From a virus (lineage: Duplodnaviria; Heunggongvirae; Uroviricota; Caudoviricetes): DNA of 64,000 nucleotides. The position numbers and the translations under genes are program-made. The stretch spans positions 53,319-117,318 of IMG/VR virus record IMGVR_UViG_3300033463_000040; one strand, written 5' to 3'. Shown here one piece after another: positions 1-53,704 of the stretch; position 1 is the stretch's first letter; the number at the start of each line of letters is the position of its first letter. Below the pieces are notes generated by a model. The model ran no database searches and was not told the DNA's origin. It saw nothing but the letters and a program-made list of their open reading frames with translations.

Positions 1-473
1 TATTTTCTTAGATACAAAATCTTTAGCATTTTCTATAACATTACCTAAAACGTTATGATCTATCATTTGTTTAACATTTAATGCAGCATCTGATAAATAA
101 AAACTTGGCATATTCTTTCTTTTAGATACTAATTTTACAACATGAGATAAAAACAAATCATATCTATTTAAAGGATCAAAAGTTCTTTCAAATTTAATCA
201 AAATTTTAATAAAATCTTTGGTATGAATATTACCTTTCAATATAATCCATTCATTAAGTAATTCATCTCTTTTAGTTGTGTTAATAAACATATCACAAAA
301 CTGTTCATTTGACAATACTGGTGTAGTCAAGCGTAATTGTTCATTAGCGGTTTCATGTATTTCATTATAAATTTCATAATTTACATAGTGATAAATAATA
401 TCTTGTTTTTTAGCCTTTTCTAAAACAGATTTTAATTTATCATTTAAATCACCAATAACTAAAACAGATTTCA
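1..473 (-). CDS. hypothetical protein, 5' part (ATG at 473, continues past the window start)
   Basis: Uninterrupted minus-strand reading frame from the ATG at 471-473 to position 1. It abuts the stop of the next gene. Confidence 0.45.
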
Positions 474-1499
474 TTATTCTACCTCTAAAATACAATTTAT
501 ATTAAATTTTGTTTCTTGTATATGCTCATACCAAGCTAAATAACCCATAGGATTACATATAACTTGAATATGACCTAATTTGTTAAAAAATCTATTGTGT
601 ACATGACCACAGTGATAATATTTAATATTCTTAAATTGTTTAAGCCAATTATCATGATTAGACATAAAGGCTGCATTTAATGGATCATCTTTATATTTTT
701 GACTTTCACATTTAGATGTAAAAGGATGATGTGTCATAAGAATAATTGTTGCATTAGGATTCTTGGCAATAATTTCTTTATAACATCTTTTAATTGCTTT
801 TAATGATTCTTTATGCATTTCATGTGTATAACTAGGATACATAGGTGTTATTTTACCATCTTCATCACGCCAATAACCATACCTATAATCATTCATACAA
901 TTTAATGCATTTTTCATTCTACGACCACGATATGAATCTTTATTGCCCATATCTAATTCATCATATTCTTTTGCAGGATCATCAGGTAAACTTGGACCAC
1001 AAAAATGTACTTCTTGTATACCTTTATCAAATTCAGTACCCTTACCAAACACTTTACCTGTGTCTATAAACTTATTTTTTTCCTGATAAGCTTTTTCTGT
1101 ATTTATTTCTTTAATATATTGAGCTTTAGTTTGATGTCCATATAAAAAATCAGTCCAACCAATACATCCAATAACTGCTATATCATCATTAAGCCAAATA
1201 TAGTCATTTTCAAGAAATTTCCATTTACCATTAAATTCTTTTTTATAATCTTCAAGTAATTCTAAAAAAGGTTTAGCATTAGAATGATAAGTAATATGAT
1301 TACCACCAATGAAAATAACTTTTTCATCTTTAAAATATGTATCCAAAAAATTTTTAGCTTCTTCAATATCTGCATCCATATCACCAGCTATTAATGTAAC
1401 ATCTGCAGGTGTTTTAGACTTCATAATTTCTACAAAATCTGTAGCTTCATAAGTCATATTTAAAGCAGCATGAAGATCAGATATAAATCGTATTTTCAT
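474..1499 (-). CDS. calcineurin-like metallophosphoesterase
   Basis: Motifs SDLHA, GDMDAD, GGNHI, THHP, GHVHN in the conserved phosphoesterase order. Confidence 0.6.
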   Translation of the reverse strand: MKIRFISDLHAALNMTYEATDFVEIMKSKTPADVTLIAGDMDADIEEAKNFLDTYFKDEKVIFIGGNHITYHSNAKPFLELLEDYKKEFNGKWKFLENDYIWLNDDIAVIGCIGWTDFLYGHQTKAQYIKEINTEKAYQEKNKFIDTGKVFGKGTEFDKGIQEVHFCGPSLPDDPAKEYDELDMGNKDSYRGRRMKNALNCMNDYRYGYWRDEDGKITPMYPSYTHEMHKESLKAIKRCYKEIIAKNPNATIILMTHHPFTSKCESQKYKDDPLNAAFMSNHDNWLKQFKNIKYYHCGHVHNRFFNKLGHIQVICNPMGYLAWYEHIQETKFNINCILEVE

Positions 1500-13992: not shown

Positions 13993-16422
13993 TTAATAAC
14001 CTTGGACTTTTATTTCTTTTACATAGAAAGAATTTGTCCATTTAGTAGTACTACTATCTTGGCTAAATCCTATCTGTATATAATATGGACCACTACCTAA
14101 AAGTGATTCAATTTGACTTCTAGTAGCTGTTGCACTCCATTCTTGAATATTACAACCATTATGATTATCTGTATCTTTCATAAGTAATATACCTAAAGAA
14201 TCTTTCCAATATTTAACATTTGTACCATTTGCATTACCAGTGGTTGCTGGTATAGTACTTATTGTATTTCTTAAAGCAATATATCCAAAATCATAATTCT
14301 TTTCACTATCTGCATTAGCATATATAGTGAATATAAAATTATCTATATTATTTGGCATAGTAAATTCTATACCTTTAGCAGTTTCCCAGGCTTTTGCATA
14401 ACTGTCTTGATGTATTCTTATTACATCTTCATATTCACTCGTTGTATAATCTTGAAGATTTTCTATAGACCATTTATCACCTTCTGCAATTGCTGGAGTT
14501 AATAAATTAGAATCTGCAGCAGTAATAGTCATAATAGTTTCAACAGGTTGGAATGCAATATCGATTAATTCACCTGTAACAGGTGCTGGAATTATAGAAT
14601 AACTTTGTGGTAAATATCCCGCAGTAGATGTAGTAAAATCTCCTTCAACTAAGAAAGAATTTGGTGTAAAATATCCAAATGCACCACTAGTACTTTCTGT
14701 TATATCATATACATTTCCACATATAAGTGTCGTACCAGCTGTATTATAAACATTAAATAAAATTGAATTAACAAGCTGATTTGCTTGCCAATTTACAGTA
14801 ACTAAATTAGGATCTTGATCTGGAACACGTAAATCAAATTCCATATCAGAATTATCATTATTTACTGTTTTTATACATACTACTCCAGGTGTTGTAACTA
14901 TTGTACGTTTATTATATACATATATATTATCATCTTCGCCTAAATAAACAATAGATTGATAAAATTTATAACAAGACCGTTCAGAATCCCATTCTGATTG
15001 AAAATTATTAGAATAATTTTTACCTTTATATATAAAACCTATTCCATCTTGTGCAGGTTCATATGTATAAATTACTACATTAAAGGTAGGTAATGCAGGT
15101 TGATCAAATATTGCATTTATATTTTCACCTCCAGCTGCAGCAATAGCATCTAATATATCTTGATTATTAGCTAAGCTAGATGAAAAATGAACGTTTACAT
15201 TACCACAATTATAAAAAGCTTGATCTAAAAAGTTTATATTGAAATCACTTAATTTTGGAAAATATACATCTCTTAGAGATGTACAATTACCAAAAGCAAA
15301 ACGTAATCCATATGATTCTACTATATCAAGCATATTAAAATATATAGCTGGAGTATTACTACATCCATAAAAACCTAGATTTAATCCATTCTTACCAATT
15401 CTTTTTAATGAAGTAAATTCAAGAGGTCCCCATCTATCATATCCTTCATCATCATAATGTTTTAAACTAGTACAGTTTTTAAATATTCCAACTGCACCTA
15501 GCTCTTCAATATATTGTATATATTCTAAATCAATCGTCTCTAAAGAATAACAATTTTCAAATATACCATTAGTAGTTCCTGTCACGCTTGTCGGTGCAGT
15601 ACCACTAGTGTGATTGTCATATAATGTAAGATTATCCGCTTCTGATCCAAAATCAACGTGATTTAAGTTTGAACAACCTTTAAACATACCATAACAATTT
15701 TCAATATAACTTATATTATCTAAAGTTACACTAGTTAATTCTGGACAACTCATAAACATATTATATGCATTTTGTATATATTCTAAATGCTCAAAATTTA
15801 CTGTTTGTAAATTATAACAATAACTAAATGCATTTGCTGCGACTTGCGCTCCTGTTGATATTCGTTTTAATTTAGGCATAGATAATTCATAAATATCTCT
15901 GGTATATTGAAAAGCTTGAGATATTGCATAAGCACCTGTAATTTCTTGTAAATTATCAAAGCGTAGTCTTACAGGTACTCCTGAAGTATTATTATGAAAA
16001 TACTGAAAAGCTCCTTCTAATGGCCCATAATTAGTAGTTCCTGTATTTGCTATAGTAACTACATTTGAAAAATCAATATCTGAAATATTATAACAACCAG
16101 GTGTACTAGAATTGCTTCTAAATGCATAAGTTAAACATTTATCCCCGGTAATACTTGTTAAAGAAGATAAATTAATTTTCCTAATACTAGGATCAGTTAT
16201 CTTATCATATACACTATAAAATACTTCTGTACCTAAATCAGTAACACCTGTCATATCAAAATCTGGCCAAATAGATGAAGCTAGCTCTTCATATGAAGGA
16301 CCTACTACTAAAACGCCATTTTCATCTGCATGATATACCTGTTTTGTACCACTTATATGTGTAGGTACATTAAGATTTTTAATTAAAGTCTGTACAGAAT
16401 CATCATTTATTAATTTAGCCAT
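13993..16422 (-). CDS. large BspA-type LRR protein (tail fibre / RBP)
   Basis: N-terminus MAKLI shared with 16424-19000; LRR units with CxxLxxI pattern. Confidence 0.55.
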   Translation of the reverse strand: MAKLINDDSVQTLIKNLNVPTHISGTKQVYHADENGVLVVGPSYEELASSIWPDFDMTGVTDLGTEVFYSVYDKITDPSIRKINLSSLTSITGDKCLTYAFRSNSSTPGCYNISDIDFSNVVTIANTGTTNYGPLEGAFQYFHNNTSGVPVRLRFDNLQEITGAYAISQAFQYTRDIYELSMPKLKRISTGAQVAANAFSYCYNLQTVNFEHLEYIQNAYNMFMSCPELTSVTLDNISYIENCYGMFKGCSNLNHVDFGSEADNLTLYDNHTSGTAPTSVTGTTNGIFENCYSLETIDLEYIQYIEELGAVGIFKNCTSLKHYDDEGYDRWGPLEFTSLKRIGKNGLNLGFYGCSNTPAIYFNMLDIVESYGLRFAFGNCTSLRDVYFPKLSDFNINFLDQAFYNCGNVNVHFSSSLANNQDILDAIAAAGGENINAIFDQPALPTFNVVIYTYEPAQDGIGFIYKGKNYSNNFQSEWDSERSCYKFYQSIVYLGEDDNIYVYNKRTIVTTPGVVCIKTVNNDNSDMEFDLRVPDQDPNLVTVNWQANQLVNSILFNVYNTAGTTLICGNVYDITESTSGAFGYFTPNSFLVEGDFTTSTAGYLPQSYSIIPAPVTGELIDIAFQPVETIMTITAADSNLLTPAIAEGDKWSIENLQDYTTSEYEDVIRIHQDSYAKAWETAKGIEFTMPNNIDNFIFTIYANADSEKNYDFGYIALRNTISTIPATTGNANGTNVKYWKDSLGILLMKDTDNHNGCNIQEWSATATRSQIESLLGSGPYYIQIGFSQDSSTTKWTNSFYVKEIKVQGY

Positions 16423-16423
16423 C

Positions 16424-19000
16424 TTAATCTTCCCTTATTAAAATATTTTTTATATAAAGTTGTATCGACGCTGGATCTTGTACATTAGAAGCATTACATT
16501 GACCAATTTGTAGCCATAATGGATCACCCTCTACCCAACCTTGTAATAATAAAGCTTCTTTAGTTATACAAAATGAATGTGACATGCCTACATACTTTCC
16601 TTCACCCGGAACATCAGGAGACCATATTTCCCCATTACTAACAGTACCAGCAAATTGAGAATCTAAAATTGCAGTCGAATGATAGAATAAATTTGACCAC
16701 TGTAATTGAACAACTTCATTGTATGTATAATTTCTATTAGGTTCTTTTACTAAACCCATATAAACTAAAGCATCATCTAATTCTGGATAATGTTCAAATC
16801 TACTATCAATGTCTATTTGTAATTTTGTACCATGTTTAAATAAATTATCAGAAATACAATTAGACAAATTTACTGATCTAAAACTCGAATTTATACTTCC
16901 ATCAGTACAACAGAATTTAGCTAACATTACAGGCGTGCTAGCCCCTTCAATTCTTTCTGCAAGTGACCACCATTCGCCTGCTTCGCTAGGTGAAAATGTT
17001 GTAACTACTATAAAATCATTAGCGGTCCAATCTGAATGAATTGTATATTCAGGAAAATTAAGTAAAAGAGGTTGAGGAGTTTTAACACTATATGCGTATG
17101 GATAAGACTCTAAATACTCATAGTTATACGTATCTCTTGGACTCAAATTATAATATATATATAAATCAGAATCATTTGTTGTATGACCAACATAAAATGT
17201 ACGATAATTATTAGTAGCAGGATGACCATCATATGCTATTATTCTATCAGTACCTAAGTTAGGCCCAACCATAAATCCACCTTGACCATGTACAATATCT
17301 TCATTGCCTACTTCAATACTTATACATTTTAAATCAAAAGGTCTTGTTGCCGCACGTAAATCTACTTCTATATTATTTTCCCAAGGAGTACCTTTTTCAT
17401 GAGGTAATTTTATAGTAATAAAAGCTTCTTCTAATCTATACATACTATAATTTGTTTTATCAGTTTTATGTATATATAATTCTGTTTGCTCAGTTAACTT
17501 ATCCTTAAATATTTCAATTGTACTTACTCCACAACCTAAATTATCATCATATACGATATCAACATTACTTGATTCTTCATAAAAATCAGTTTCTCTATTA
17601 TATATAATAGTCTTACAAAATGTATTTGTAGTAGTATAACTTCTTTTAACAAAATCTGCTAAAATTGTAACCTTTACTTTTTCTAATTCAGGTAAATCAA
17701 ATAAAAGTGAAGTATTTGTTCCACTTACCCTAGCTAATAAATTTTCAATAAACCAATCTCCATATTTATTTATAAGTAGTGGATATAAATCTTTAGAAAA
17801 ATGTATTTTTACATCTGTACAATCTTCAACTAAACCTTCAACAGCAGGAGCATCTATATCACCTAATTTAGGAAAATATATATCTGTTAAACTTGTACAT
17901 CCTCTAAATGCTAAATATAATGCTTGATTATCCTTTAATAACATCAAACTATCAAAACTTATAGAAGTTAAAGATGTACAATATTGAAATATTTCCCAAC
18001 CACCTGCCGGTCCAATTTCTTTAAGGTTAGCTAAACTAACATGCTGTAAATTAGAGCATTGTTTAAACGCACAACAAGCTCCTCTTTCATCTATTTTTAT
18101 TACGCTATCTAAATTAATAGAGGTTAAACCTGTACAATTATAAAATAAGCCATTTGTTGCATTAATACCCTCATGACTAGGTCCTAAAATCAAATCTGAA
18201 GTACCAAGAACAACTTCGGTTAAATTTGCGCAGTTTTTAAACATATCATTAGAATTTTCTATTTGCTTTAAAGCTGGCATATATATTTTTTGAATTCCAG
18301 AAGCATTTCCTCCACCAAAGAGACCCGTAGTACCTTCAATTCTTTTTAAGCTTTCAAATCTAGCTTCTATTAAATCTTTTGTGTTACTAAACATATAATA
18401 TGCTGCATTGCCTGTTCCGTCTGTTGTTATTTCTTTTAATTTAGGAAAATCCACATAATATAAATCCTTACATCCATAAAAAGTATACCAACAAGTATAT
18501 TTACCTTTTATTTTTTCTAAGGAATTAAAGTTTATAGTTATTGGTTTTCCATAAGTAGTCGTACGTAACTGATAAAAAGTATAATTTAAAGTACCATTCG
18601 CATTACCAGTAGCCCCTTCTACATTTATTTCTTTTAAATTTGAAAAATCAATTTCAGTTACATTTGGATATTGACCTGTATAAAATGCATCATATAAAAC
18701 ATTTTTATTAGTAAGACTAGTCAAAGAAGAAAAATCTATCTTTGTAAGAGCATCTCGCTGATTCGCTGTCCAATTTTTTGCCGCATCTTTAAATACACCT
18801 TCACCTAAATTGGTAACTCCTTCCATATCACCAGGTTTGGGCCAAATAGATAAAAGTTCTTCTGTTGAAGTAGTTCTTTTACACAACTTACCTTCTACTA
18901 CTTCATAGTTTGAAGAGATTTCACTAAAAGGCAAAGGAACTTTTTGCTCTAAAATTTTAGCTGGGATTGGATTAGACTCACCGATTATAAGTTTAGCCAT
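16424..19000 (-). CDS. large BspA-type LRR protein (tail fibre / RBP)
   Basis: N-terminal LRR half with an internal SLLFDLPELEKV junction, then a distinct C-terminal domain. Confidence 0.55.
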   Translation of the reverse strand: MAKLIIGESNPIPAKILEQKVPLPFSEISSNYEVVEGKLCKRTTSTEELLSIWPKPGDMEGVTNLGEGVFKDAAKNWTANQRDALTKIDFSSLTSLTNKNVLYDAFYTGQYPNVTEIDFSNLKEINVEGATGNANGTLNYTFYQLRTTTYGKPITINFNSLEKIKGKYTCWYTFYGCKDLYYVDFPKLKEITTDGTGNAAYYMFSNTKDLIEARFESLKRIEGTTGLFGGGNASGIQKIYMPALKQIENSNDMFKNCANLTEVVLGTSDLILGPSHEGINATNGLFYNCTGLTSINLDSVIKIDERGACCAFKQCSNLQHVSLANLKEIGPAGGWEIFQYCTSLTSISFDSLMLLKDNQALYLAFRGCTSLTDIYFPKLGDIDAPAVEGLVEDCTDVKIHFSKDLYPLLINKYGDWFIENLLARVSGTNTSLLFDLPELEKVKVTILADFVKRSYTTTNTFCKTIIYNRETDFYEESSNVDIVYDDNLGCGVSTIEIFKDKLTEQTELYIHKTDKTNYSMYRLEEAFITIKLPHEKGTPWENNIEVDLRAATRPFDLKCISIEVGNEDIVHGQGGFMVGPNLGTDRIIAYDGHPATNNYRTFYVGHTTNDSDLYIYYNLSPRDTYNYEYLESYPYAYSVKTPQPLLLNFPEYTIHSDWTANDFIVVTTFSPSEAGEWWSLAERIEGASTPVMLAKFCCTDGSINSSFRSVNLSNCISDNLFKHGTKLQIDIDSRFEHYPELDDALVYMGLVKEPNRNYTYNEVVQLQWSNLFYHSTAILDSQFAGTVSNGEIWSPDVPGEGKYVGMSHSFCITKEALLLQGWVEGDPLWLQIGQCNASNVQDPASIQLYIKNILIRED

Positions 19001-21853: not shown

Positions 21854-21930
<77 letters not shown>

Positions 21931-23398: not shown

Positions 23399-23486
23399 GA
23401 TTTTACCTCTTATTTTAAACTCATTGGGTGGGATTGATAATGTTACTAAAACATCATAGCAATTGTCCCACCCTTTTATATTTGAA

Positions 23487-23912: not shown

Positions 23913-24302
23913 ATTTTTTCCTTATGTTTTTCTTAGACTTATAGATATTAGGCATAATAAATAATTATCATTCACTAATATCCGGTTAAAATTGTTGTAG
24001 AGTCAATCAAATATAAACATCCAAGGATTGCATAAACATGCTTAATATATTATATAGACTCTACCCCAACACTATTTTGATAACTGTAACCCTACTCTAT
24101 CGTTTCAAGTATGTTACTTCATGATCGGTCTGTGCTCAGCAGTCATGACTAACCTGGAGTTAACACTATGTGCTCAACCTATTTTTTATTATCAAAATCT
24201 CTTACTTAGTAGGTCCCTTTACTGACTACGGCGTCCATTCAAATATATTGGATATACGATTCAAGGCTTTTATCTCTATACTACGATTACCTACTAATCT
24301 CT

Positions 24303-24605: not shown

Positions 24606-25309
24606 CTTACTACTATAGCTTTCACTACCAATTTCTTGTTTGTAGTCTGGACTTTGTCTTCACCATATATTTCTACTTAGGTGGCTGCCGTTAAGTCTCT
24701 ACACGTTCCTATTTCTAGGCTTCGCTCGGCGTTAGGATTATAAAACCTTTCACCGAATTTGACAGCATTCAATCGAGAAGTTTCCTACCTTGTTGCTCAT
24801 TAGTCTTACCTCTTCTAAACCTATAAGATTTAGTTAAGGAATGGCAATTTGGACACAATATAATTAAATTAGATAATAAATGATTTTCAGGATTTCCATC
24901 GATATGATGTAATTCGCATGGAGTATATTTGCTATTTTTTAATTTTTCACACCACCCACATTTCTCACACTTATCTTCTTTATATCCTTCATCTATTAAT
25001 CTTGTTTTTAATTTATATGTTTGATACTGAGGATACTTTCCTGCTAAAATTTCTTCTATAGATATTTTAGCAGATCTTTTTTTCTCAGTACCTTTTCCGC
25101 CTTGATTAGGTTTATAAATACCCAATCTTTTAGCATGCCTAATAAATGTTGTATATGCCATACCACATCTTTTAGCAGCTAAAGCCATTGTTTGAGACTT
25201 AATGATAATATCAATCATTTCTTGATCTGTAATTCTATTTTTCATAGGATTAACTCCTTATGATATAGAACTACTTTTTCAATAAATTATGATACACTCA
25301 TTTTCGTCT
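24606..25309 (-). mobile_element. group I intron in the tRNA-Leu anticodon loop, carrying an HNH homing endonuclease ORF
   Basis: Exon ends in U before the 5' splice site; the intron ends in G; P7-like CAGACTAC...GTAGT elements near the 3' end; HNH ORF inside. Confidence 0.6.
24769..25245 (-). CDS. HNH homing endonuclease (intron-encoded) with N-terminal HTH
   Basis: CELHHIDGNPENHLLSNLIILCPNCHS HNH motif; lies wholly within the intron. Confidence 0.65.
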   Translation of the reverse strand: MKNRITDQEMIDIIIKSQTMALAAKRCGMAYTTFIRHAKRLGIYKPNQGGKGTEKKRSAKISIEEILAGKYPQYQTYKLKTRLIDEGYKEDKCEKCGWCEKLKNSKYTPCELHHIDGNPENHLLSNLIILCPNCHSLTKSYRFRRGKTNEQQGRKLLD

Positions 25310-25551: not shown

Positions 25552-25625
25552 TGGTGCACCAACCCGGTTATGCTCCGAGGTCTTAACCTTGGCAAGGTTA
25601 CATTCTACTATTAAACTACTGGTGC
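25552..25625 (-). tRNA. tRNA-Gly (GCC) with a non-canonical T-loop (AGCATAA)
   Basis: Acceptor GCACCAG/TTGGTGC; anticodon arm TAACC-TTGCCAA-GGTTA. Confidence 0.55.
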
Positions 25626-26209: not shown

Positions 26210-26402
26210 ATAGACCAAGAAAGCTAATAACTTTTTCATATTAACTTTCAGGTAATACTTCTAGCCAATGCTAAAAGAAAAACTTTCCTCTAATAAGTCT
26301 TACCAAAATTATTTCGTGCTTATTAGTAGGCTGTCTTTGATACGTATTCCTACCTTTATAGCCTCATACGTAACTAATAGTAGACACTTCTGTAAAACTT
26401 AA

Positions 26403-26564: not shown

Positions 26565-26639
26565 TGGCTGGCGTGGTCCGATTCGAACGGACAACCATTC
26601 GGTTAACAGCCGAAAGCTCTGCCGTTGAGCTACACGCCA
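26565..26639 (-). tRNA. tRNA-Asn (GUU)
   Basis: Anticodon arm TTCGG-CTGTTAA-CCGAA; T-arm GTCCGTTCGAATCGGAC. Confidence 0.75.
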
Positions 26640-27831
26640 ATATAAAGGTGTTTTGATTCTCTACGATGGCTCAATAACACCAAAAGCCTCGGCAAATCCT
26701 CGACCATTGGTCAAGGCCCAGAAATATGTTCAGTCGAGCATCACTAGCTGAACTCCGTGATGTTCGGATTGAGGTGTCCAATCAGTAGTTGAAACTTTAC
26801 CCCAAAAACCAAAAATGCATTTCTACATTCTGGCAATCCATACTAGCTAATGCTAATAGGAATTTAAGCGGAGAATGATAGTAAGACCCGGAATTTAGAT
26901 CACTGACTTGTAAGAGTACAAGCTAACCGGCCTATCAAACCCGAAATTAATATACATAAAAGTATATCAACAGTAAACATTTATACTTCCAATTCCACCT
27001 TACTAGAGCTCTTTCAGGTTTCCTATTCTTTCCCTTGGACTTGTTACAGCAAGCTGTATTGTCGAACACCAATACATTCGAGACTATTTCACTCGAAATA
27101 AGTATAAACATTAAAAATGCAGAATTTAGTTGGCCTAACCTAACGAAGTCACACCTGCATTAAACTCCGACTACTATCGACTAGTGACGATCGTTCTGAC
27201 CAGGAACGTTAGTCAAGGGATTTAGCCTACTACTGCAGTCTCAGCTAAATTGAGGGTGGGATTATTGGTTAGGCACTTCCCCTAACACTTCAGCCCAGTG
27301 TGCTGTGTGCTATACTTCACACTACTTACCCAAACTTTATGGCGACTCGTATGGGTACCGCCCCCATCTGATTTCCTGAGTGACAGTCAGGTGAACACAC
27401 TATGCATTCCCACGAGCCAAATATTTTTCTATACTTTTTGAGCTAAGCCCGCAAATAAATTTGGTAGATTCTGTTGCCAAGCTCTACCCAGCTCCGATTG
27501 ATAACTTTATTTAAATCAAGCAGCTATTGCACTTAATTTATAGTTATCGTTCGCTGGTTCATTTATCATGCCAGTCAATTAAATAATCTTTTGTAATTAT
27601 TTAGTAAACTGTATCGGTGATATTGCAATGTCCCTTATGCTTCTTTTGGTCTAGTACCAAATGTTCTATTCGTAATAAACTAAATATCACCAAACTTTAT
27701 GGTGGAGATATCGGTATTGAAACCGAGTCCAGTAAAAATATACTGTCGAATTTAACTCATCCCCTTGTATCTTTACCTAGAGCTGATAACATTACTAAGA
27801 TGTCATAGCAGTTGTTCTAGGATTTCATTTG
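26640..27831. ncRNA. 1.2-kb ORF-free, GC-enriched, hairpin-dense segment between tRNA-Asn and tRNA-Tyr: candidate large structured RNA
   Basis: No ORF above the noise. GC visibly above the ~28% background. Many GC-containing local stems (catcac..gtgatg, gttagg..cctaac, agtgtg..cacact, cctga..tcagg). CCAAACTTTATGG motif twice (27331, 27679). A tRNA-like 3' end at 27690-27725. Confidence 0.3.
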
Positions 27832-28098
27832 TGGTGGGAGAGGTTGGAGTCGAACCAACTCAGTCATAAGACAACAGATTTCATTGCTACATTGTTTTCA
27901 CATTGTAGTCTGGACTTTCTCTTCATCTCAATAAGATGTCTGGTGTAAAGTCTCTACACTCGGATTTCTCCTAGCTCGGGATTAGCATATCATTTAACTT
28001 AGCTTTCCCCGACTTAGCCAAATTTTCACTTATATATTACTATATAAGGCTGCAATTTTTTACAGTCTGCCCCGGCTCTCCGACTCCGGCGCTCGCCC
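27832..28098 (-). tRNA. tRNA-Tyr (GUA) interrupted by a ~180-nt intron; exons 28098..28062 and 27881..27832
   Basis: 5' exon GGGCGAG-CG-CCGGAGTCGGAGAGCCGG-G-GCAGA-CTGT joins to 3' exon AAA-TCTGT-TGTCTTATGACTGA-GTTGGTTCGACTCCAAC-CTCTCCC-A-CCA. The spliced anticodon arm GCAGACTGTAAATCTGT matches the E. coli tRNA-Tyr pattern. The intron core is homologous to the tRNA-Leu intron. Confidence 0.55.
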
Positions 28099-28106
28099 AT
28101 TAGTTA

Positions 28107-28607
28107 CTAATTAAAAAAGTTATTCCATATTTCTTTTCTTTTATCTAGATTATTTCTATACAAACCACTGCTAGAAGGTAAAACATGTTTTTGTAATTTA
28201 TCTAAATCAAATGATAAATTTTGTTGTTTTACGATTTTAGAAAATTCTTTAAAAGCAGTTTGTCCATTAAAATATAGATCTTTATTAATTAGTTTTTCTA
28301 AATTATTATATTGTTGTAAAGATATATTTTTATCTAGACTTGTTTCTTTATTATTTTTATCTAATCTAGAACAAGCAGATAATACATCCCATACACCAAT
28401 ATCTTTTTCTGCTAACCTTTTTATTTTTTCTATATAAGAAATTTTGTTATCATCTTTATCTTTAGTAGGAATATTTAATAATGTCCAAAAACTATTATTT
28501 GGATGACTATAATACTCACTACGTAAATTAGATACCAAACCTGGATAACTACCCAAAATAATTTTATTCGCAGATGGATTAACCATGTTCATTTTATACC
28601 TCCTCAA
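28107..28607 (-). CDS. uracil/thymine-DNA glycosylase, family 2 (MUG/TDG-like)
   Basis: ILGSYPGLVS...YYSHPNNSFWTLL matches the MUG signatures G.NPGL.S and HP.N.FW. Confidence 0.5.
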   Translation of the reverse strand: MRRYKMNMVNPSANKIILGSYPGLVSNLRSEYYSHPNNSFWTLLNIPTKDKDDNKISYIEKIKRLAEKDIGVWDVLSACSRLDKNNKETSLDKNISLQQYNNLEKLINKDLYFNGQTAFKEFSKIVKQQNLSFDLDKLQKHVLPSSSGLYRNNLDKRKEIWNNFFN

Positions 28608-53107: not shown

Positions 53108-53704
53108 TTACTCGTTTGGTCTTAATTCTTCTAAAGTTTTATTGTTGTAATAAAATAATTGATAACCATTTAAAGAATTAGTTTTATCTGCAGGTGCTAA
53201 TTTACCGGCAATTTTTGATACACTTTCTGGTTTATCGAAACCTGGAAATTGAACTTTATTCTTTGGCATTACAATACCAGTACATGCTGGTAATTGACAA
53301 TTCATATAATAAATCTTAGCACCAATTGGAATATTCAACATAGCAAACGTAGTATTATTACGGCGTTTTTTAGTAGAATTAGGTGTAATTTCTTTACTTC
53401 CAGGTAAAGATGTTCTAGCAAAACTTAAAACTTCATCTAATTTATCTGCACTAAAAAATTCTGTTTCACGACCAGTTCTGGTATAATGTCTATATGCAGC
53501 AAAAGCTTTATGTAAAGCTTTTTCATTTTTTTCAGCATCTTGGCATTCAAATAAAGCAACAAATTCAAAATCTTCTAACACACTAGTATTTGATAAAGTA
53601 GCTTTTCTACCATTTATACTATTAGTTATACCAATTTTAATAAATCCATATAAGCATGGATTTGTTGCAATATATAAATATCTTTTTTTACTTTTATTTT
53701 CCAT
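53108..53704 (-). CDS. GIY-YIG-like (T5orf172/MUG113-type) putative endonuclease
   Basis: YLYIATNPCLYGFIKIGITNS...R, a GIY...YIG-like spacing. Confidence 0.35.
   Translation of the reverse strand: MENKSKKRYLYIATNPCLYGFIKIGITNSINGRKATLSNTSVLEDFEFVALFECQDAEKNEKALHKAFAAYRHYTRTGRETEFFSADKLDEVLSFARTSLPGSKEITPNSTKKRRNNTTFAMLNIPIGAKIYYMNCQLPACTGIVMPKNKVQFPGFDKPESVSKIAGKLAPADKTNSLNGYQLFYYNNKTLEELRPNE

Follow-up and report, generated by a model that had tools for sequence, protein, structure and literature searches.

The window analysed here is a stretch of 64,000 nucleotides (nt) from a virus of the class Caudoviricetes (IMG/VR record IMGVR_UViG_3300033463_000040, positions 53,319 to 117,318), and its subject is the segment 26640-27831, which lies in a tRNA island between two tRNA genes of the minus strand:

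26565..26639, minus strand: tRNA-Asn(GUU), the 3′ neighbour of the segment's last unit, block E, in 10 of 11 phage loci
27832..28098, minus strand: tRNA-Tyr(GUA) with a group I intron, the upstream flank, outside the element; detected by ARAGORN only with introns allowed

Within the phage tRNA operon, the segment consists of non-coding RNA units that follow one another on the minus strand. Read 5′ to 3′, the order is M0, the tRNA-like domain (TLD) of a transfer-messenger RNA (tmRNA), M76, a tmRNA tag piece, tRNA-Asp, M1, X, Y, A, an insert, BCD and E, followed by tRNA-Asn. The units from X to E (X-Y-A-insert-BCD-E) form a composite of ~610 nt on the minus strand. Block E of the phage is homologous to an autonomous small RNA found on bacterial mobile elements.

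An earlier note on this DNA had described the segment as free of open reading frames (ORFs), enriched in G+C and rich in hairpins, and these points are borne out. The longest ORF on either strand of 26640-27831 is at most 63 amino acids, and the G+C fraction in 300-nt windows is 0.37-0.50 across the segment, versus 0.21-0.30 in the coding flanks. The minus strand of 26640-27339 (700 nt), which is the strand of all 14-15 tRNAs, folds at -203 kcal/mol with a z-score of -3.7, compared with z = -2.4 for the plus strand. The proposal that a functional structured non-coding RNA resides in this phage tRNA island is also upheld, as comparison with related phages reveals both conservation of the segment and compensatory base changes.

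The class assignment suggested in the same note fared differently. Rfam covariance searches of the window segment and six related loci (among them L004, L010, L013, L016, and L019; related loci are cited by such numbers) yielded no match to GOLLD, ROOL, RNase P, group II intron, Y RNA, riboswitch, or ribozyme families at the gathering threshold or at E ≤ 10. At gathering thresholds, the whole window gives tRNAs only, and at E ≤ 10 the segment gives sub-threshold tmRNA matches only. The idea of one RNA of 1.2 kb has to be abandoned too: approximately 40% of the segment consists of two tmRNA-derived genes, a stem-loop, and tRNA-Asp, and the remaining ~690 nt is made of modules that shift or are absent between relatives. 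Among the alternatives that had been listed, the degenerate tmRNA-like element and the tRNA copies were partly correct, given the tmRNA pieces and the tRNA-Asp described below. An ORF-less group I intron is not what fills the segment, the sole Intron_gpI match (27889-28072, 64.8 bits against a gathering threshold of 50) lying inside tRNA-Tyr, and group II introns and RNase P went without any Rfam match in the segment at E ≤ 10. No internal promoter or terminator stands out above chance in the segment.

Conserved blocks of the composite

Relatives of the segment were collected by three routes: through homologues of the adjacent gene for a uracil-DNA-glycosylase (UDG)-like protein, by a metagenome scan with a 20-mer from block A, and by a genome scan with a degenerate pattern of block E. 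Eleven related loci were obtained in addition to the window (L004/5, L008/9, L010, L013-L016, L018-L020, and L022). All except L022 are of rumen-type metagenome origin. L022 (JAFZWP010000001.1) is a 245-kb contig from buffalo rumen that had been binned as 'Bacilli bacterium'; over 445 nt it matches the window at 96% identity, and it probably represents a phage genome of the window's group. Searches of GenBank phages and PLSDB plasmids revealed no homologue of the composite or of block E, the sole match being a 76-nt hit to the tRNA-Asp. Scans of IMG/VR with blocks A, D, and E gave chance matches only (L011, L012, L029, and L030) or nothing, and the UDG neighbour gene had no match in IMG/VR when used as a query; the useful IMG/VR loci are L002 and L003 only. 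The A-BCD-E core is so far confined to rumen phage contigs of roughly 120-250 kb.

The eleven-way alignment resolves three near-invariant blocks, namely A0 with A, BCD, and E, which follow one another in constant order in 11 related phage contigs. The features of the composite, in the order of transcription, are as follows.

27116..27253, minus strand: X, a hairpin plus two candidate H-type pseudoknots
26973..27115, minus strand: Y, a closed multi-hairpin domain with a 13-bp closing stem and the motif AAGGGAAAGAAUAGGAAACC...GGUGGAAUUGGAAG; fold z = -2.1
26869..26970, minus strand: the A0 hairpin and block A, a long irregular hairpin (alignment A5)
26804..26865, minus strand: two-hairpin insert at the A/B junction, common to L008 and L010; fold z = -3.0
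26728..26803, minus strand: block BCD, comprising GGUAAAG, a UUGGA/UCCGA hairpin, and an H-type pseudoknot (CAUCAC/GUGAUG with GUUCAG/CUGAAC) (alignment A4)
26647..26720, minus strand: block E, a pseudoknotted small RNA (alignment A3, covariance model R1)

Between phages whose neighbouring UDG genes reach only ~70-73% DNA identity, the conserved blocks are 92-100% identical. In block E, 98.4% of the alignment cells are paired and 8 of 23 pairs are compensated, including 4 of the 6 in the pseudoknot stem, a level reached in 0 of 500 shuffles. Block BCD behaves likewise (99.5% of cells paired; 9 of 25 pairs compensated, with 5 of 6 in pseudoknot stem 1; 0 of 500 shuffles). For block A, 98.6% of cells are paired; A0 covaries, and the main hairpin barely varies and has few compensated pairs. 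Summed over E, BCD, and A, the compensated pairs number 20. These counts use structures proposed from the same sequences, and the slid-partner shuffle control is generous, while the compensated pairs themselves are explicit. Block A is an 85-nt irregular hairpin with a 37-nt invariant run in the relatives that share its pattern; only the A of L022 diverges. The window's BCD lacks ~25 nt, corresponding to two helices and UCCAUAAG, that are kept in all relatives. Blocks A and BCD are conserved pseudoknotted blocks without a known relative. A 'P4-like' pairing of block B with GGGUCUUAC in block A was considered and rejected, as its variants are uncompensated.

Around these blocks, the composite varies by whole modules. 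X is present in the window, L013-L016, L018, and L019, and absent in L004, L008, L010, L020, and L022; L010 and L020 carry a different module, X′, and L004, L008, and L022 have no module at this position. Read directly from the sequences, the pairing of X is kept under substitution: the hairpin UUUAGC/GCUAAA becomes UUUGAGA/UCUCAAA in L015, and the stem AUGCAG/CUGCAU becomes UUAGAU/AUCUAA in L016. Y stands before A in the window and L019 only. A Y-related module closed by AAUAUCUCUU/AAGAGAUAUU is located at the A|B junction in L004 and L010 and at the D|E junction in L013-L015 and L018, and the GGGAGAAAAUAGGAAACC module occurs at three different junctions among the relatives. Y or the related module carries AAGGGAGAAAAUAGGAAACC...GGUGGAAUUGAAG and is closed by stems of 10-13 bp. 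In addition, tRNA-like inserts with good T arms, closing stems of 8-12 bp, and no CCA are found at the A/B junction in L015, L018, and L020 and at the D/E junction in L008, L020, and L022.

Block E and bacterial DUF3800 modules

Outside the phages, the genome scan with the block E pattern also turned up a free-standing copy of block E in L021 (CACWNX010000001.1), a 688-kb contig of a rumen metagenome-assembled genome (MAG) labelled 'uncultured proteobacterium'. There, E is preceded by a TATAAT box within a promoter-like -35/-10 arrangement and by a small 5′ hairpin, and its pseudoknot stem runs into a U tract. The stem, GGGGAG/CUCCCC in L021, compensates GGUGUU/AACACC of the phages. E is convergent to a 159-amino-acid ORF and a 231-amino-acid ORF, the latter being a DUF3800 protein (PF12686, Pfam score of 49 bits).

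Covariance model R1 was built from the E alignment of ten phage copies and L021, so that the match to L021 is by construction. The window copy scores 109.6 bits, and copies beside DUF3800 genes in L021, L023, L025, and L026 score 81-94 bits. Further bacterial contigs were fetched via homologues of the L021 DUF3800 protein (40-73% identity), and R1 matched at five independent fetched sites with E-values from 1e-19 to 4e-6: L023/24 (88 bits), L025 (81 bits), L026/27 (82.5 bits), L028 (36 bits, E = 4e-6), and L032 (33 bits, E = 1e-6). At all five, E overlaps the 3′ end of the ~160-amino-acid gene on the opposite strand, in the same relative place. When the discovery locus L021 is included, E is convergent to the pair of a DUF3800 gene and a ~160-amino-acid gene at all six bacterial sites tested. 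Two more loci, L031 and L033, contain weak R1 candidates at the end of the gene pair. The E-bearing bacterial loci adjoin integrases, methylases, and a ParE toxin gene.

A recurrent three-part module is apparent at L021, L023-L028, and L032; it consists of a DUF3800 gene, a gene of ~155-165 amino acids without a Pfam match, and a convergent pseudoknotted RNA of ~120 nt, usually located by an integrase.

It was previously reported that DUF3800 genes are accompanied by many dissimilar, well-conserved structured RNAs of unknown function, often with terminators and on either strand (PMC5737381). The DUF3800 protein itself is predicted to have an RNase H-like fold and has ties to mobile elements and defence loci (PMC10910872, PMC13594972). 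The pairing of E with DUF3800 at the bacterial loci fits this published picture. Like the DUF3800-I to DUF3800-XI, drum, and skipping-rope RNAs (PMC5737381), the bacterial homologues of E are compact, highly conserved, pseudoknotted, terminator-ended, and placed on the strand opposite to the DUF3800 gene. Unlike them, E has no match in Rfam 15 at E ≤ 10, either for the window copy or for L021, in a library that includes at least DUF3800-I and DUF3800-IX. A further difference is that the phage copies end at a tRNA rather than at a terminator and are without a DUF3800 gene: no homologue was detected by tblastn in the 64-kb window or in the fetched phage loci. E is a new DUF3800-type small RNA that is orphaned in phages.

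tmRNA-derived pieces and processing junctions

The 5′ part of the segment contains the following features.

27776..27821, minus strand: M0, a hairpin between tRNA-Tyr and the TLD (-13 kcal/mol, z = -2.2)
27700..27764, minus strand: the tmRNA TLD, 65 nt, in standard order and without a tag (RF00023 alignment, covariation)
27692..27699, minus strand: spacer UAAAGUUU after the CCA of the TLD; with this CCA and the following GG, it makes up one of the two 13-nt repeats
27616..27691, minus strand: M76, a stem-loop of 76 nt closed by GGUGAUAUU/AAUAUCACC, in the window and L022 only (fold z = -2.6)
27457..27614, minus strand: the mRNA-like (tag) piece of an alpha-type tmRNA (Rfam alpha_tmRNA at 27460-27612, 36.4 bits, E = 2e-8, gathering threshold 50)
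27516..27554, minus strand: the tag frame GCG AAC GAU AAC UAU AAA UUA AGU GCA AUA GCU GCU UGA, which reads ANDNYKLSAIAA and a stop
27340..27418, minus strand: non-canonical tRNA-Asp(GUC), 79 nt, found by ARAGORN at a relaxed threshold only
27332..27339, minus strand: second spacer UAAAGUUU after the CCA of tRNA-Asp, the second copy of the 13-nt repeat
27254..27331, minus strand: M1, a unit of 78 nt, GGGUAAGUAGUGUG...CCUAACCAAUAAUCCCACC, 95-97% identical in L002 and L010

The TLD consists of the acceptor strand GGGGAUG, AGUUAAAUUCGAC (with the D-loop analogue AUUCGAC), a closed hairpin CAGUA-UAUUUU-UACUG (a P2 of 5 bp), GGAC, the T arm, UAUCUCC, A, and CCA; it accounts for the tRNA-like 3′ end that the earlier note had seen on the minus strand, which is the T arm, acceptor strand, and CCA of this domain. 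It aligns with RF00023 from end to end (model positions 1-374) with 310 internal positions deleted (26 bits, E = 3e-9); the gathering threshold is 47 bits, and the homologous TLDs of L016 and L013 reach 48.9 and 48 bits. In an alignment of eight sequences (A1), compensatory changes occur in the P2 hairpin and the T stem. Every copy has G3.U70 in the acceptor, where GGGGAUG pairs with UAUCUCC in the window or CAUCUCC in the relatives, followed by ACCA. The P2 is closed by a loop of 6 nt, and neither a tag frame nor pseudoknots lie between the halves, which is the form without a coding sequence ('no CDS'). Identity among the relatives is 82-97% for the TLD, and that of M0 is 86-94% in L008, L015, L016, L018, L020, and L022.

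ARAGORN drew a permuted tmRNA at 27425-27794 with the tag (EP)ANDNYKLSAIAA and a stop. This was rejected as drawn, since a TLD in standard order fits and covaries. The '5′ half' of the drawn gene, GGUGAUAU, would give U3.U70 and is actually the 5′ strand of the 9-bp stem that closes M76. The true 5′ acceptor strand precedes the T arm within one small RNA, an order that is not that of a permuted gene.

In the tag piece, a hairpin on the 5′ side and another on the 3′ side (loop UGGCAACAGAA) flank the tag frame and the long helix that encloses the tag; a tRNA-like half is absent. The alpha_tmRNA match of the tag piece is limited to the tag and the terminal UGGCAACAGAA hairpin, both of which are of the alpha type. 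It is 92-97% identical in L004, L014, L019, L020, and L022, with 5 compensated pairs in the consensus fold, and it aligns with the classical alpha-type permuted tmRNA at 250-590 (minus strand) of L003 (IMGVR_UViG_3300032284_001448), a 15-kb viral contig in which the tag reads ANDNNAYDLRLAA and a stop. The spacing between the TLD and the tag piece differs among relatives: they abut in L020 (0 nt) and are separated by 76 nt in the window and L022, by ~215 nt including a tRNA in L019, by ~530 nt in L014, and by 1.2 kb including a 240-amino-acid ORF and tRNA-Trp in L004. From this arrangement, the TLD and the tag piece are to be read as separate genes.

The tag differs among relatives by ATA>ATT, GCT>GCC, GCA>GCT, AAA>AGA, and AAC>AGC. 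Synonymous changes were considered as a sign of translation, or of purifying selection on the peptide, and this argument is undermined by compensation within the RNA helix. The changes do not prove translation, because AAA>AGA is compensated in the opposite strand of the long helix and AAC>AGC gives a G.U pair.

Two known forms may be compared with these pieces. A TLD-only tmRNA exists in mycobacteriophage DS6A, and a similar molecule inhibits tmRNA (PMC4131195, PMC11915505); the tmRNA database holds nine 'standard, no CDS' sequences, including that of DS6A (PMC11915505). The window TLD resembles the DS6A form in its length (~65 nt), standard order, G3.U70 acceptor, D-loop analogue, short closed P2, T arm, CCA, absence of a tag, and phage origin. 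It differs in that its T arm and acceptor resemble those of an alpha-type permuted phage tmRNA (94% identity to L003), its T loop is 1 nt short, and a nearby separate gene retains a tag-bearing piece. With regard to alpha-proteobacterial permuted tmRNA (RF01849, RF04321), the likeness comprises the tag ANDNY...AA, the terminal UGGCAACAGAA hairpin, and the same T arm. In such permuted genes, the coding piece starts with the 5′ acceptor strand, which pairs with the acceptor piece, whereas the window has this strand upstream of the T arm in the TLD, the tag piece lacks a tRNA-like half, and the spacing ranges from 0 nt to 1.2 kb among relatives. Because the classical permuted tmRNA of L003 has the same T arm, the window lineage probably re-arranged a permuted gene. 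The 2025 tmRNA database paper (PMC11915505) tabulates no gene form in which a tag-less TLD is accompanied by a tag piece of its own locus.

Between the TLD and the tag piece of L019, two tandem sub-threshold matches to '6A RNA' (RF02925) were observed at 137-241 (plus strand; 32.8 and 34.8 bits against a gathering threshold of 41.2), accompanied by a weak tRNA.

The 13-nt motif that the earlier note had seen twice, CCAAACTTTATGG, is present at 27330-27342 and 27690-27702, 360 nt apart; 0.09 occurrences are expected, and 0 of 100 shuffles reach two. On the minus strand, it reads CCA-UAAAGUUU-GG, in which CCA is the 3′ end of the TLD or tRNA-Asp, UAAAGUUU is a spacer of 8 nt, and GG opens the following unit. 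In L002, L013, and L016, CCA ends are likewise followed by an identical or similar AAAGUUU spacer, and the repeat presumably marks a processing junction.

The tRNA-Asp between the two copies has an acceptor stem of 7 bp, the anticodon loop CUGUCAC, and an encoded CCA, together with an odd D arm and the T loop GGCGGUA; neither RF00005 nor ARAGORN at default settings detects it. L015 and L020 carry it at 100% identity (three phages with the window), and it is 79% identical to the tRNA-Asp of the 642-kb huge phage LR756502 (L001, LR756502.1), where ARAGORN calls the gene by default. Other relatives have a canonical tRNA-Asp at this position. M1 is located before X in the window, before X′ in L010, and just upstream of the TLD in L002, an IMG/VR contig that carries M1 and the TLD at its end; as a single sequence, M1 folds no better than shuffles (z = +0.6).

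Candidate roles and neighbouring features

The reading that we prefer, with about even confidence, is that the segment encodes co-transcribed RNA modules, some of which are probably decoys for SmpB and for DUF3800 modules. Briefly, the tRNA operon and the segment would be transcribed as one precursor, and cleavage by RNase P and 3′-end enzymes would take place at genuine tRNAs and at each CCA-UAAAGUUU-GG junction. The resulting RNAs would be look-alikes that act on the RNA-binding machinery of the host. By binding SmpB, and perhaps also alanyl-tRNA synthetase, the tag-less TLD would disturb trans-translation or divert it, an effect that has been proposed for DS6A. The target of E would be the protein of a host DUF3800 module, bound or titrated in a manner analogous to pseudo-ToxI, and A, BCD, X, and M1 would be further look-alike modules. 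Phage pseudo-ToxI RNA reportedly mimics a type III antitoxin RNA. The likeness lies in a phage-borne copy of a structured small RNA that normally partners a protein of a bacterial mobile element or defence locus; the difference is that mimicry by E is a conjecture from this resemblance and that the DUF3800 partner RNA is without an established role. Modularity is supported by the mobility of M1 and of the Y-type module, by the presence or absence of X, by the loss of two helices from the window's BCD with intact neighbours, and by the autonomy of E in bacteria.

Several observations weigh against this reading. The unit ends are defined solely by CCA ends, spacers, and conservation edges, and the order of A, BCD, and E is invariant in the 11 phage loci. 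The inserts between blocks are all closed by long stems, and the tRNA-like ones are without CCA, an arrangement that fits one large RNA at least equally well. The decoy roles of the TLD and E are suggested by analogy, and A, BCD, X, and M1 yielded no partner. No helix that was both clean and conserved emerged when a duplex of the TLD with the tag piece was sought, and the tag substitutions are explained equally by RNA pairing and by coding.

A possible alternative, which we hold only tentatively, is that X-A-BCD-E, ~370-680 nt long in the various phages, makes up a single large ornate RNA that would represent a new class and work like GOLLD or ROOL, possibly self-assembling, and with a 3′ domain derived from a DUF3800-partner RNA. 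The strict order and co-occurrence of A, BCD, and E in 11 of 11 phage loci, with differing flanking tRNAs, argue for it, as do insertions that occur at three junctions only, each with a closing stem of 10-13 bp, and three tRNA-like inserts that, with good T arms, long closing stems, and no CCA, may not be excised. The lack of an internal promoter or terminator above chance is consistent with it as well. The composite shares with GOLLD and ROOL its phage origin, multiple pseudoknots, and a variable region with tRNA-like elements; GOLLD linkers sometimes hold tRNAs, and both classes are found near tRNA islands (PMC12286853), while the rumen source recalls ROOL (PMC5737381). On the other side, E stands as a complete, self-sufficient gene in bacteria, and the window has lost two BCD helices with A and E intact. 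No long-range pairing among A, BCD, and E was seen by eye in the eleven-way and module alignments, in which power is low as the blocks hardly vary. In contrast to GOLLD and ROOL, there is no match to a large-RNA covariance model of Rfam, and the conserved part is made of modules that also occur separately. For the tmRNA-derived pieces, it may be asked whether they form a working two-piece tmRNA, a new split on unlinked genes by which the phage supplies its own trans-translation tag. We judge this to be quite improbable. Both pieces are kept in relatives at the identities given above, ANDNYKLSAIAA is a typical alpha-type degradation tag ending in AA, the conserved UGGCAACAGAA hairpin follows the tag as in the classical permuted gene of L003, and the start of the tag piece, CCAGU, could invade the P2 strand ACUGG of the TLD. 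The TLD, however, forms P2 and the acceptor stem from its own strands, with covariation, a conserved helix between the two RNAs was not found, and the in-tag changes, being compensated in the opposite helix strand, give no sign of translation. L015 has the composite, and neither a TLD nor a tag piece was detected within its 11.4-kb contig. No tmRNA is known to work with an untethered mRNA-like domain.

Two further explanations have far less in their favour. That the composite is a fragmented or permuted RNase P RNA which processes the phage tRNAs is barely credible. The lead, which does not amount to a test, came from apparent resemblances: GAGGUAAAGUCCAUA to the P4 5′ strand region of RNase P, GAGGAAAGUCCAUGC; GAAUCAAAAC to the segment just before the P4 3′ strand; and a module in L013 and L004 to the P9-P11 region. 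The Rfam search gave no RNase P match at E ≤ 10 in the window, L004, L010, L013, L016, or L019; the AACACC of the 3′ end, rather than forming a P4-like helix, joins GGUGUU in a pseudoknot that covaries; E exists independently as a DUF3800-associated RNA; and the window is entirely without the UCCAUAAG part. The RNase P-like reading of GAGGUAAAGUCC and GAAUCAAAAC was rejected on the same grounds. That the segment is functionless, decaying debris of tRNA, tmRNA, and intron copies is very unlikely. The non-canonical tRNA-Asp, the deletion in the window's BCD, and the tRNA-like inserts without anticodon loops or CCA could be taken as signs of decay. Opposed to this are the 92-100% identity of the blocks next to a protein gene at ~70-73%, the 20 compensated pairs in three modules with 0 of 500 shuffles reaching the E and BCD values, and the identity of the odd tRNA-Asp in three phages.

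Beyond the preferred reading of co-transcribed modules, a bolder joint claim, which we consider unlikely, is that of an RNA-only counter-measure cassette. It would combine an ornate RNA (~400-700 nt, A-BCD-E with embedded tRNA-like domains) with a split tmRNA that reprogrammes ribosome rescue, and the 3′ domain of the ornate RNA would be a captured DUF3800-partner RNA that disarms or hijacks DUF3800 modules by mimicry. If true, the cassette would be the first functional handle on DUF3800-associated RNAs, for which no function has been proposed since 2017, and a third class of large phage RNA. Apart from the cassette, an orphan phage copy without its protein points to a partnership of RNA and protein which it is in the interest of phages to disturb. 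The TLD with a separate tag piece is either an intermediate in tmRNA gene permutation or a new phage handle on ribosome rescue. The A-BCD-E core is in any case undescribed, pseudoknot-rich, and near-invariant, with the genomic habits of GOLLD and ROOL.

As to the host, the alpha-type tag and the low G+C content (32%) of the rumen 'proteobacterium' MAG (L021) with the E-RNA module hint at a low-GC proteobacterium.

Every gene of the segment was missed by default ARAGORN and by the Rfam gathering thresholds, and such tRNA islands are therefore under-annotated. A tRNA at 25555-25625 (minus strand; Rfam, 49.2 bits) was likewise missed by default ARAGORN; the homologous place in L010 is tRNA-Gly(GCC). 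More ORF-free stretches of the island, at 24087-24190, 23416-23468, 24206-24297, and 26213-26279, are 77-92% conserved in L004, L008, and L010 and may be more unannotated small RNAs. The insert of tRNA-Tyr is 180 nt long and lies in the anticodon loop; the orthologues in L004, L008, L010, L016, L020, and L022 are intron-free, and the intron is thus a recent gain. With regard to protein genes, a weak HNH endonuclease ORF is present inside the island (24769-25245, minus strand), a gene of the UDG superfamily lies just past the island's other edge (28107-28607, minus strand), and two large BspA-type leucine-rich-repeat proteins are encoded at 13993-19000 (minus strand), outside the island and upstream of its boundary at 21854.

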